Origin: an uncultured archaeon
Lineage (GTDB): Archaea; Asgardarchaeota; Heimdallarchaeia; Heimdallarchaeales; Heimdallarchaeaceae
DNA: 20,770 nt
Direction of reading: 5' to 3'
NCBI GenBank assembly: GCA_964549075.1
Contig: CAZJUB010000044.1
Span: forward strand, 1-20,770
Positions 12,016-15,410 of this stretch are shown in pieces (positions within the stretch are counted from its first letter, which is position 1; each line of letters starts with the position of its first letter). Made by a program: the position numbers and the translations under genes. Under the pieces are notes generated by a model. That model was not told where the DNA came from. It did not search any database and worked only from the letters and a program-made list of their open reading frames with translations.

Positions 12016-12032
12016 CTGGAATCGGTGCAAAC

Positions 12033-12040
12033 TTTTTTTT
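12033..12040 (+). terminator. Oligo-T run after the M20 gene
   Basis: T8 run 17 nt after the stop; may overlap the promoter of the next gene. Confidence 0.35.
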
Positions 12041-12066
12041 ATTACTTAAATACATCATTCATTATC

Positions 12067-13470
12067 ATGTGTGATACAGTTGTAGCAGTAGGAAGTGCGA
12101 CCAAAGATAAAAGTGTTATTTTTGGCAAAAACTCAAATAGAGTACCAAATGAAGCGCACAATATAGAATATATTAAAGGTAAGAAACACAAACCTAATTC
12201 TAAAGTTAAATGTACTTACATTTCTGTTCCTCAAGTTGAGCAGACTTATGATGTCTTACTTCTAAAACCATTCTGGATGTTTGGTTGTGAGATGGGGGCA
12301 AATGAACACGGAGTTACTATCGGTAATGAAGCAGTCTGGTCAAAAGAACCTATTCGAGACACTGGTTTGTTAGGTATGGATATGATGAGACTTGCTCTTG
12401 AAAGGACTAAAACAGCAAAAGATGCTTTAACCACAATTACTGATTTATTAGAAAAATATGGCCAAGGAGGACAGTGCTCATATGGAATTGTAGGGAGAGA
12501 TTACCATAATTCTTTCATTATTGCTGATTCAAAAGAAGCTTGGGTTCTTGAAACAGCTGATAAATATTGGATTGCTGAAAAAGTGAAAGGTATACGAACA
12601 ATTTCAAATTCACTCACAATAGGAAGCGAGTATGATTTGATTCATCCTGATTTAATTAAAGATGCTATAGCAAAAGGGTATACAAAATCAAAAGAAGAAT
12701 TTCATTTTGCTAATGATTTTATTCCTAATTTTAGATTTTATCATGCACTTAAAGAATCAAGTCCAAGATCACAATATTTTACTAAAGGATTTGACAGACA
12801 ACAATGTACTACAGCTTTACTTCTAAAAAACAAAGGAAAAATTACACCAGAAGATGTAATGTCGGTATTAAGAAATCACAACATTCCTGAAGAGAGAAAG
12901 GACACTTTTTCTTTGGATAAAGCAAAAGCAAGTAGTCCTTGTCACCATGCAACAGGTATGATTGTACCTGATCAAAGCGCTGGATCTCTTGTATCACATA
13001 TAAAGAAAAACATCCAAGTGCATTGGGTAACAGGCTCAACAGCGCCTTGTATTAGCACTTTTAAGCCGATATTTTTCCCGAAACCTGCACTAAAGAGAAA
13101 ATTAAAATTATCTGATGCGGTTTTTGACGCTGATGCATTTTGGTGGATGAACGAAAAATTCCAGAGATTAGTAAGTTTAGATTATCAAAAACGGTTATTT
13201 ATATTCAAACAAGAACGAGATGATTTAGAAAAAGAATTTTCAGAGCAAGTCCAAACCATTCTCAAAAAGGTTACTGGAAAACCTACTGAAGCAGATTTAA
13301 AGAAAATGGACAAAATCACTTCAGATGCCTTTTCAATTAGCATTAAGAAAGTTAAAGAGTGGACAAGAAAGATAGAGCAATTACCTATTGAAAATAAAAC
13401 TGGTTATCTTTACAGATTTTTCTGGAATAAACAGAATAAAGAAGTCAACTTAGAATTAAGTGATGCGTAG
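12067..13470 (+). CDS. Peptidase C69 / secernin-like Ntn-hydrolase dipeptidase
   Basis: Start reassigned to ATG 12067, giving MCDT (N-terminal Cys nucleophile); FGKNSNR..NE, GCEMGANEHGVTIGNEAV, LLGMDMMRLALER, YHNSFIIAD..EAWVLET. Confidence 0.9.
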   Translation: MCDTVVAVGSATKDKSVIFGKNSNRVPNEAHNIEYIKGKKHKPNSKVKCTYISVPQVEQTYDVLLLKPFWMFGCEMGANEHGVTIGNEAVWSKEPIRDTGLLGMDMMRLALERTKTAKDALTTITDLLEKYGQGGQCSYGIVGRDYHNSFIIADSKEAWVLETADKYWIAEKVKGIRTISNSLTIGSEYDLIHPDLIKDAIAKGYTKSKEEFHFANDFIPNFRFYHALKESSPRSQYFTKGFDRQQCTTALLLKNKGKITPEDVMSVLRNHNIPEERKDTFSLDKAKASSPCHHATGMIVPDQSAGSLVSHIKKNIQVHWVTGSTAPCISTFKPIFFPKPALKRKLKLSDAVFDADAFWWMNEKFQRLVSLDYQKRLFIFKQERDDLEKEFSEQVQTILKKVTGKPTEADLKKMDKITSDAFSISIKKVKEWTRKIEQLPIENKTGYLYRFFWNKQNKEVNLELSDA

Positions 13471-13541
13471 ATTCAGTGGTGCCGTTATTTTCATAGCATA
13501 CTAAATGCTCCAACGGTAAAACCTACATCACTATCCACGCA
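13464..13541 (-). ncRNA. Putative box C/D guide sRNA
   Basis: Minus strand: 9-bp terminal stem UGCGUGGAU/AUCUACGCA, C box GUGAUGU (13531-13525), 12-nt guide, D' UGGA, hairpin GCAU/AUGC, C' AUGAAAA, 11-nt guide, D box CUGA (13476-13473). Both motifs have k-turn geometry. Confidence 0.7.
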
Positions 13542-13559: not shown

Positions 13560-13578
13560 TTAACATAAAGGTATCCTT
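13560..13578 (-). promoter_or_regulatory. Conserved motif AAGGATACCTTTATGTTAA (copy 2) between the sRNA and the divergent 596-aa gene
   Basis: Near-identical to 6420-6439; palindromic core AAAGG-TAT-CCTTT. Confidence 0.45.
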
Positions 13579-13619: not shown

Positions 13620-15410
13620 ATGATAGAAGTAATTCAGCAATTTTTAGAAAAAGAATATGAAGAAGCACAGCGAGTCCACAATCTGAAGCTTCAGTTTGAC
13701 CGTTATCGGACCATGAGTAAAAATCTTATTGATGAATATCAATCAGGTAGTTCTGGTTCAACAACACTTATTGTCTCAGCATTATACTCAGCTGATTATA
13801 TCATAACTTCTTCTGATGTTAAATTCGAACTTGAAGATTCAGCAAGAAGAAAAGAAATCATTGATATGTGGTCAAAACTATCTCTTCCTTCAGAGGATAT
13901 TTGGAACGAGATAACGCACATTGTTGCTTTTACATACAAAGTTACTTCAATCTTGAGAAAGAGATATTATTATCTTTTGGATCGAGGAGTAGCTAAACAT
14001 ATTGGAGCTGCTTTAGTAGCAGATTATTATACTAGACACTTACTGAAATTTGTTCGAGAAAAAGTGTCATTCATTCCTTTGTGGTGGATATCCACATTGA
14101 CTGAAACAGCTTTATGTCAAACCATATTCTCAACCACAAATAAAAAATGGGGAAATATGCAAAAAATACTTCAATCAAGTGATAGCGGAGTCATAGCACA
14201 GATTATTGCACGACACTTTGTAGATGAAACTGAAGGGGAACCAAATCAAGCCGTACCTATACCCTACTTTAATGAATCTACTGCATTCTATTACTTCACT
14301 TGGCAAGATGAGGAAACAAAAGGTGACAAATTCGAATCACTTCTTTCAGCTTTAAAAACACCTCAATTAGGAAAAGAATTCAAAAAAATCTCTAGTTTAC
14401 TCAGTGGTGATTATCCTCACCAACTTAAGTATATTAGAATGGGGGGTAAGCTTGAATCATTATCTGCTGAATTAAATTTCTTTCTTGTCCATGCCAAAAC
14501 AGAAAACGCTGAAGGATGGATTGGTTTACTAAGCCCGTTGGATGATATAAATCTACGAGAGATTGAATCTTTGCTGAAATTTAAATTAGAAGATATAAGC
14601 TCTTTAGAGGCTTATAAGAACGTACTACCTAAAGTGGATGTACTGACCAGAGCAAAAGAAGAAAGAGAGATTGTTGAAGAGAAAATGGAACTTGAAGAAA
14701 TGCCCAAACCAACAGGTTTCTTTGCCAAACTATCTGCTATTTTCAAGAGGAAAAAGAAGCCATCGTATAAAAAAACACAAGTTAAAAAAACCGTTCCAAT
14801 TGATGCTTGGTCAAGATTGATTTTAGATGAGATATTACTAGCTAGTGTTTCAGGAATAAGTTTAGGATTAGAAATTTATGATGCTTATAGAGAAGATAAC
14901 TTTACTATAAGTGGAGTGATAGAATCACAACAAAAAGTAGATACATCTTCTTCATTCTATAAAGAAGAAAAACAGCCACCTACAACTTTCTATTCTGAAG
15001 CTCCTATACAATTTCCATCAGAATTTCTTGATCCTGTAATAGGAGTACTTAGTATTGCTAAAAATTTCATCACTATGAGTTTTAAAGAAAAGATAAATTT
15101 CATTGTTCCAGAAGAAGCGTTTTATGAAAACAAACTCAATCCAGAAGTTTTCAGATTAGTCGAGTTTGTTAAAGGGGAAAAAGTGCTTATAGGTATTCTT
15201 GCTGAAAAACAAGCTCGAACAGCTATGACTTATGCACAACAAGAACCTACATATCAGCGAAGATCATTAATTCGAAAAGCAAATGAAATGATTCATGCAC
15301 GAAGAGTCAATAACATAATTGACGCTGGAAAAAGGACTTTAGCAAGAGAGATTAACTGGGATACAGTAAACAAAAGTTTCGAAGAAAATCCAATTTATTA
15401 TGAAGCTTAA
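13620..15410 (+). CDS. Hypothetical protein (596 aa), possibly two longin-like domains flanking an amphipathic/polybasic helix
   Basis: Long ORF with ATG, upstream TATA-like TTTAATTTA and downstream T7 run; internal GFFAKLSAIFKRKKK; the domain guess is inference. Confidence 0.8.
   Translation: MIEVIQQFLEKEYEEAQRVHNLKLQFDRYRTMSKNLIDEYQSGSSGSTTLIVSALYSADYIITSSDVKFELEDSARRKEIIDMWSKLSLPSEDIWNEITHIVAFTYKVTSILRKRYYYLLDRGVAKHIGAALVADYYTRHLLKFVREKVSFIPLWWISTLTETALCQTIFSTTNKKWGNMQKILQSSDSGVIAQIIARHFVDETEGEPNQAVPIPYFNESTAFYYFTWQDEETKGDKFESLLSALKTPQLGKEFKKISSLLSGDYPHQLKYIRMGGKLESLSAELNFFLVHAKTENAEGWIGLLSPLDDINLREIESLLKFKLEDISSLEAYKNVLPKVDVLTRAKEEREIVEEKMELEEMPKPTGFFAKLSAIFKRKKKPSYKKTQVKKTVPIDAWSRLILDEILLASVSGISLGLEIYDAYREDNFTISGVIESQQKVDTSSSFYKEEKQPPTTFYSEAPIQFPSEFLDPVIGVLSIAKNFITMSFKEKINFIVPEEAFYENKLNPEVFRLVEFVKGEKVLIGILAEKQARTAMTYAQQEPTYQRRSLIRKANEMIHARRVNNIIDAGKRTLAREINWDTVNKSFEENPIYYEA

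Follow-up and report, generated by a model that had tools for sequence, protein, structure and literature searches.

We analyzed a 20,770-nt stretch of DNA, referred to in the following as the window, which is contig C44 (CAZJUB010000044.1) of the assembly GCA_964549075.1 from an uncultured archaeon of the family Heimdallarchaeaceae. The assembly comprises 3.23 Mb in 217 contigs, with 32% GC and a completeness of 89.7%. An element of ~78 nt on the minus strand of the window, at positions 13464–13541, most likely represents an independently transcribed archaeal box C/D small RNA (sRNA) of Heimdallarchaeota that guides 2′-O-methylation of U531 in the small subunit (SSU) ribosomal RNA (rRNA), a reading to which we assign a probability of about 80%.

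On the minus strand, the element reads UGCGUGGAU-A-GUGAUGU-AGGUUUUACCGU-UGGA-GCAUUUAGUAUGC-U-AUGAAAA-UAACGGCACCA-CUGA-AUCUACGCA. This sequence, the 9-bp terminal stem with its one G–U pair, and the two spacers of 12 nt (C to D′) and 11 nt (C′ to D) are exactly as they were first read in an earlier note on this DNA, and the spacers fall within the ~12 nt expected of box C/D sRNAs. The parts of the element, together with the putative promoter upstream of it, are as follows:

13541–13464, minus strand: the sRNA as a whole, ~78 nt, with boxes C, D′, C′ and D in that order
13562–13569, minus strand: TATA-like box TTTATGTT, centred ~25 nt upstream of where the terminal stem starts
13533–13541, minus strand: 5′ strand of the terminal stem, UGCGUGGAU, covarying with 13464–13472
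13525–13531, minus strand: C box GUGAUGU, matching the consensus RUGAUGA at 6/7 positions
13513–13524, minus strand: D′ guide AGGUUUUACCGU, 12 nt, with the core GGUUUUACCGU; A13517, at the fifth position upstream of box D′, faces U531
13509–13512, minus strand: D′ box UGGA, degenerate, its conserved part being the GA only
13496–13508, minus strand: internal hairpin GCAU-UUAGU-AUGC (GCAUUUAGUAUGC), 4 bp, with covariation GC/UA/GC and CG/UA/AU
13488–13494, minus strand: C′ box AUGAAAA, degenerate, with R-U-G-A retained and preceded by a single U
13477–13487, minus strand: D guide UAACGGCACCA, 11 nt, of which GGCACC(A) faces (U)GGUGCC in SSU rRNA
13473–13476, minus strand: D box CUGA, present as CUGA in 28/29 family copies
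13464–13472, minus strand: 3′ strand of the terminal stem, AUCUACGCA, antisense to the last 7 nt of a C69 peptidase open reading frame (ORF)

Boxes C and D have the layout of a kink-turn (K-turn), with a stem, a 3-nt bulge, tandem G–A pairs and a U–U pair, as far as this geometry can be deduced from the sequence. A13532 and the C box supply the bulge A-G-U, the G and A of the tandem sheared pairs, and a U for the U–U pair, and a G of the C box pairs with the C of box D. With its internal hairpin, the C′/D′ motif appears to be a K-turn closed by a stem and not a K-loop.

The D′ guide has a clear rRNA target by complementarity. Its core, GGUUUUACCGU, is invariant in 29/29 copies from the family and in 8/8 copies examined from a second family of the same class. 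The guide pairs over 11 bp, 10 of them Watson–Crick and one a terminal G–U, with the 530 loop of SSU rRNA, GCGGUAAAACC (E. coli positions 527–537), and the pairing starts at the base adjoining the D′ box. The SSU genes of six genomes from the same genus contain the segment GGCUGGUGCCAGCCGCCGCGGUAAAACCAGCUC, and its core, UGGUGCCAGC-GCCGCGGUAAAACCA, was found in 13/13 relatives inspected, which belong to five families of the class. One of these 13 SSUs has an A for a C at a position of the loop that separates the two target segments. The 530 loop sequence is GGUAAAACC in all 13, and the guide has the matching U; most archaea presumably have GGUAAUACC here, with a U where these relatives have an A, and bacteria mostly have the U as well. 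When the guide was shuffled, 73 of 5000 shuffled guides equalled its match to SSU rRNA.

Counting five nucleotides from the D′ box most likely places the predicted 2′-O-methylation on U531, which adjoins the decoding nucleotide G530. This E. coli numbering follows the 515–533 primer site. It agrees with the equivalences G507 = G530 and A512 = A535 given in PMC4644070, and the +5 rule and the box consensus were used as stated in PMC7994747. The D′+5 position falls on U531 in all 29 family copies and in the 8 second-family copies examined; the register is fixed.

The earlier note had predicted the D′ target as ACGG[U]AAAACCU, and the SSU rRNA of relatives contains a near-verbatim counterpart, GCGG[U]AAAACC. 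The note had also suggested that the element might be an orphan guide. That suggestion did not hold: the D′ guide matches the SSU 530 loop, a target that could not be seen from the window because the SSU gene is found neither there nor in the assembly. With a clear predicted rRNA target for D′, we do not consider the element an orphan. Both target strings were to be searched for in rRNAs and tRNAs, and the search succeeded for the D′ string, in the SSU rRNA of relatives, and failed for the full D string. Large subunit (LSU) rRNA offered no good match for either guide, and nothing convincing was found among 36 tRNAs.

The element is conserved well beyond the window. A blastn search with the region found the block in 17 of 18 genomes of the same genus, and several of these matches begin at the 5′ end of the element, where the flanks no longer align. 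The 17 aligned copies were used to build a covariance model, R1, which scored the element at 94 bits in its own genome, with the runner-up at 19 bits. Among the 30 other family genomes, R1 found a copy in 29, namely 23/24 within the genus and 6/6 in four other genera (two single-contig genomes among them), and in none of 17 genomes from the other families of the order. A search of 400 Asgard genomes with a pattern consisting of the C box and the D′ guide gave matches in 29/30 genomes of the family and in 21/22 genomes of the second family of the class; matches elsewhere were sporadic, and a reversed-pattern control on the 400 genomes yielded scattered single matches only. No Rfam model matched at its gathering score, and a search of the local region at E ≤ 10 returned two chance-level matches only, to SIB_RNA and a CRISPR repeat. 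We consider the element a real, conserved guide RNA and not a chance occurrence.

One member of the genus has a second, weaker copy (G014:C117:15375-15455, 37.6 bits) ~2 kb from its intact copy. The 3′ half of the weaker copy is near-identical to the family, and its 5′ half, comprising the stem strand and the D′ spacer, has been replaced by unrelated sequence, which leaves no way to form a terminal stem. This copy probably represents a relic or a product of recombination. We also considered guide variants (GGUAUUACCG) in other Asgard families, where the seven pattern matches inspected lacked the box architecture and thus provide no evidence for covariation between guide and target.

Comparison of the copies argues for a selected RNA structure. 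The covariation analysis used 30 aligned copies (29 distinct rows) and the 12 base pairs of the model, in two helices. Standard pairs occupied 91.8% of the helix cells, compared with at most 51.7% when the partners were slid by 1–3 columns. Compensatory changes were seen in 9 of the 12 pairs, and 7 of the 9 terminal stem pairs were among those with such changes. None of 500 shuffles reached these values of pairing and compensation. The same covariation picture was obtained with the 17-sequence alignment. Covariation in relatives, which the earlier note had named as a check on its reading, is thus present. The terminal helix also holds 26 G–U cells, which would be A–C mismatches on the plus strand. 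These fit the minus strand only, and the RNA strand assigned in the earlier note is therefore upheld. Folding energy was less informative. The minus strand had a z-score of −2.5 (3 of 200 shuffles were as good) and the plus strand a z-score of −3.3 (1 of 200); alone, the folding energy is mildly unusual, picks no strand and proves little.

The D′ and D guides are complementary to each other over CCGUU/AACGG, as previously noted, because their rRNA targets are the two strands of one hairpin. A long hairpin pairing both guides, proposed by RNAalifold, was examined and rejected: its inner pairs never covary, and two members of the genus break pairs in it. This hairpin arises because the guides match the two strands of rRNA helix 18, and it is not a selected structure.

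Comparison with relatives also bore out the box C/D identity and the positions assigned to the boxes. Box counts were taken over the 29 parsable family copies. The C box is an exact RUGAUGA in 14 copies, RUGAUGU in 12, and a UGA(C/A)G variant in 3. The D′ box has the form NNGA in 29/29, as UGGA (15), UUGA (7), UCGA (4), AUGA (2) or CUGA (1). For the second family, 8 copies of the 21 matches were examined, and 6 of these comprise the whole sRNA, with a canonical C′ box (AUGAUGA) and D box (CUGA). The D′ box in the second family is CUGA, CCGA (1/8) or CUGG, in the same register as UGGA here, and the C box is UGAUGA, UGACGA or UGAAGA. Some of these copies have all four boxes canonical. A longer internal hairpin is found at the same place, between D′ and C′. 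The other 2 copies had no recognisable 3′ half within the stretch looked at. We regard the element as a member of a genuine box C/D family in which the internal boxes have degenerated in this genus. In an sRNA that looks functional, C′ and D′ can thus degenerate within one genus even though the guide sequence remains invariant.

The D guide is less clear-cut. The sequence before CUGA is AAC-GGCACC-N in the genus, with AAAGGCACC in two genomes, mostly AACUGGCAC-N in the other genera of the family, with UAUUGGCAC-A in one, and mostly AACUGGCAA in the second family. Its partner in SSU rRNA, (U)GGUGCC, corresponds to positions 513–519, on the opposite strand of helix 18 from the D′ target. The D target predicted in the earlier note, UGGUGCCGUUA, was not borne out: it occurs nowhere in the assembly except as the complement of the element itself, and SSU rRNA matches UGGUGCC only. 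A search of the whole assembly with the full complement of the D guide, GGUGCCGUU, likewise returned only the element's own antisense strand, and genome searches allowing G–U pairs gave hundreds of matches and were uninformative. Pairing of ~9 bp or more abutting the D or D′ box, as is asked of a guide, is formed by the D′ guide and not by the D guide. The D guide may be a second guide, though a weak one, or may provide auxiliary pairing with helix 18.

The element sits in a 150-nt gap between two plus-strand ORFs, one for a C69-type peptidase (12025–13470) and one of 596 amino acids (13620–15410). The C69 ORF ends at 13470, which confirms the 7-nt antisense overlap with the end of this gene described in the earlier note, and the overlap includes the stop codon. 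An AT-rich motif, TTTAT/TTAAT, occurs at an equal distance upstream in the 17 aligned copies from the genus. The TATA-like box is a putative archaeal promoter of the sRNA, and ~25 nt upstream is the distance expected for such a promoter. The gene order of peptidase, antisense sRNA and 596-amino-acid gene is conserved in the first family. The second family has different neighbours, with no C69 peptidase nearby and an unrelated gene of ~305 amino acids instead. Since the neighbours differ between the families while the RNA is kept, the RNA is conserved independently of its flanks and has a gene of its own. In the second-family genomes G066, G057 and G074, the sRNA immediately precedes a same-strand ORF of ~305–313 amino acids that starts with Cys-rich motifs (C-x-C-G ... 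C-S-S-C-F).

L7Ae is encoded in the genome (93.7 bits), and fibrillarin was found in 30/30 relatives searched. The LSU rRNA is archaeal, scoring 2371 bits with the archaeal model and 1631 with the bacterial one. The LSU match (G000:C65:1287-5521) spans 4235 nt, compared with the 2987 positions of the archaeal model. The ~1.2 kb extra represents expansion segments or introns; supersized expansion segments of Asgard archaea are cited in the review PMC8339473.

A number of observations weigh against a methylation guide directed at U531. The second half of the consensus is missing from the C′ box, and its UGA core occurs in only 21 of 29 copies, compared with 29/29 for the GA of D′; the other 8 have UGU, so that the G–A pair becomes G–U. 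This change should weaken the C′/D′ K-turn that positions the D′ guide. The D′ match itself has p ~0.015 by shuffling, which is not vanishingly small. The D-guide variants pair over only 6–7 bp with the 5′ strand of helix 18, GGUGCCAG, a match equalled by 2026 of 5000 shuffled guides and not significant alone. The register of the D guide slides as well, with +5 falling on G517 in this genus, on C518 in the family's remaining genera and on C519 in copies of the second family, and the conserved AAC 5′ of the pairing is left without explanation. RNAalifold prefers the long guide–guide hairpin. Finally, the assembly lacks an SSU rRNA gene, and the target was therefore read from relatives; nor did fibrillarin (PF01269) or Nop5 (PF01798) score above the cut-off in this 89.7%-complete assembly. 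The lack of fibrillarin is most simply put down to incompleteness, and one lost contig with the fibrillarin and Nop5 genes would explain both absences.

From the anatomy, conservation, covariation, strand and guide–target complementarity of the element, we infer its transcription, protein binding and role in methylation, which might proceed as follows. The terminal stem would join boxes C and D into a K-turn, and the internal hairpin would join the degenerate D′ and C′ boxes likewise. By analogy with characterised archaeal small ribonucleoproteins, L7Ae would bind the K-turns and recruit Nop5 and fibrillarin. The D′ spacer would then pair with the 530 loop, and a 2′-O-methyl group would be placed on U531. 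The D spacer may direct a second methylation (G517 in the genus) or may only hold helix 18 open during 30S assembly.

The last possibility leads to another way of looking at the element, in which the box C/D ribonucleoprotein acts mainly as a folding chaperone that clamps both strands of helix 18 in the pre-16S rRNA, methylation being absent or incidental at one or both sites. The two guides do face opposite strands of the same rRNA hairpin, which would explain their mutual complementarity, and the D guide keeps its complementarity to GGUGCCAG while its register drifts, as expected if pairing outweighs precision at the +5 position. Double guides have been proposed to act as chaperones (PMC4644070). 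However, a duplex of 6–7 bp would make a weak clamp, and the D′ register, fixed on U531 in the 29 family and 8 second-family copies, fits selection on a methylation site. We therefore consider a role mainly as a chaperone unlikely.

Considerably less probable is that the element is some other structured or L7Ae-binding noncoding RNA, such as a regulatory K-turn RNA or a transcript antisense to the C69 3′ end, with no guiding function. L7Ae does bind K-turns outside sRNAs (PMC5539422), C′ and D′ depart from the consensus in this genus, and the antisense overlap takes in the C69 stop codon. Yet the overlap is just 7 nt and the gene appears to end before the element in several relatives; the 11-bp complementarity to the 530 loop is invariant and in the exact register of box D′; and the second-family copies are textbook box C/D RNAs. 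Hardly credible at all is a plus-strand hairpin that terminates or attenuates the C69 mRNA at its 3′ end, with a T-rich run behind it: the plus strand folds well, AATTTATTTTTATTTTTT follows the element on that strand, and the element lies at the C69 gene end throughout the family, but the 26 G–U cells of the terminal helix would become A–C mismatches, the unpaired guide segments are the most conserved parts, the box motifs are correct on the minus strand only, and the second family keeps the RNA with no C69 gene nearby. A methylation guide for U531 remains our preferred reading.

We also looked for other guides in the genome. A strict box C/D pattern with RUGAUGA gave 0 matches, because U is the last letter of the C box in the sRNAs of this genome. 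When the scan was relaxed to a C box RUGANGN, with CUGA 45–84 nt downstream and a stem of at least 6 bp, it recovered the element along with other sequences, giving 69 candidates that are mostly noise. A permissive, target-driven scan yielded at least 450 matches, barely above the at least 333 in a reversed-genome control, and was not used.

Two candidates from the relaxed scan stand out. The first, G000:C7:65618-65665 (minus strand), is a textbook box C/D sRNA candidate of 48 nt with a TATA-like box upstream. It consists of a 6-bp stem, AUGAUGU, a 12-nt guide, CUGA, a 4-nt loop, UGAUGA, an 11-nt guide and CUGA. Its D′ guide forms 11 Watson–Crick base pairs with SSU helix 44 (GUCGUUGCAAC), and its D guide matches the facing strand of the helix, AAAAGUCG, over 8 bp. 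The second, G000:C1:6294-6348 (plus strand), lies in a region without any ORF of at least 60 amino acids and has an 8-bp terminal stem, AUGAUGA, a D′ box UUGA and a D box CUGA, with no clear C′ box; its D′ guide has a 14-nt pairing run (score 12.5) with SSU rRNA around GAGGUAGUGCAUGG. The element in the window would be one of a small set of guides, all apparently aimed at the functional core of the SSU. The tRNA-Trp(CCA) gene (G000:C107:6103-6242) contains a 59-nt intron at position 39, in which the motifs GUGAUGC and AAUGAAAA occur; certain Euryarchaeota have a tRNA-Trp intron that acts as a box C/D guide.

By its predicted function and its anatomy, the element belongs to a kind already known, the archaeal box C/D sRNAs. 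It resembles these L7Ae–Nop5–fibrillarin guides, as outlined in PMC7994747, in the order of the boxes, the ~12-nt spacers, the terminal stem with its K-turn and the +5 rule, and also in being a double guide aimed at neighbouring rRNA sites. It differs from the usual archaeal forms in its length (78 nt, compared with 50–70), in its long terminal stem of 9 bp, and in the 13-nt hairpin between D′ and C′, where a short K-loop is usual. Box C/D guides are expected in archaea; what is added here is a concrete, conserved Asgard guide with a predicted target in the decoding centre. Within the literature searched, no description of individual Asgard archaeal box C/D sRNAs was found, and guides of other archaea with U531 as their predicted site may be given in supplements or figures of papers. 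The covariance model and the sequence pattern can now be used to annotate the family in Heimdallarchaeia.

The closest archaeal parallel is with crenarchaeal double guides described in 2015 (PMC4644070), in which the 530 loop is addressed on its 3′ side by the D′ guide, and helix 18 on its 5′ strand by the D guide. From such pairs, the authors inferred selection for a coupled interaction of both guides. The predicted crenarchaeal sites are A535 and G515 in E. coli numbering, compared with U531 and G517 here (C518 or C519 in relatives). This likeness concerns the target sites as described in that paper.

In eukaryotes, the nucleotide predicted as the target here is that of snR77 (yeast Um578), SNORD65/HBII-135 (human Um627) and AtsnoR77Y (Arabidopsis Um580/582). 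Yeast G577 corresponds to E. coli G530 (PMC4896748), and U531 is therefore yeast U578. The Um578/Um627 site is listed for yeast, human and plants in tables of PMC2794176, PMC3511168 and PMC11542601, and PMC3511168 places the snR77/SNORD65 family among the C/D snoRNA modification targets of the last eukaryotic common ancestor. The 2024 table in PMC11542601 lists no Pyrococcus abyssi equivalent of the site, and the passage of the 2012 survey PMC3511168 on positionally equivalent archaeal guides names a handful, the U531-equivalent site not among them. Within Rfam clan CL00057, the element matched neither RF00571 nor RF01181, even at E ≤ 10.

The shared eukaryotic and Asgard site may reflect common descent or convergence on helix 18. 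Convergence is a serious alternative, because helix 18 is a known hot spot of methylation in archaea (PMC4644070). We consider it unlikely that the sRNA is the archaeal orthologue of snR77/SNORD65 by vertical descent. Were this true, the guide for U531 (yeast Um578, human Um627) would have been inherited by eukaryotes from an Asgard ancestor, and the stem-closed C′/D′ module and long terminal stem might represent early steps towards a snoRNA-like architecture. With the element, it becomes possible to test in a concrete case whether individual families of snoRNAs are older than the eukaryotes.

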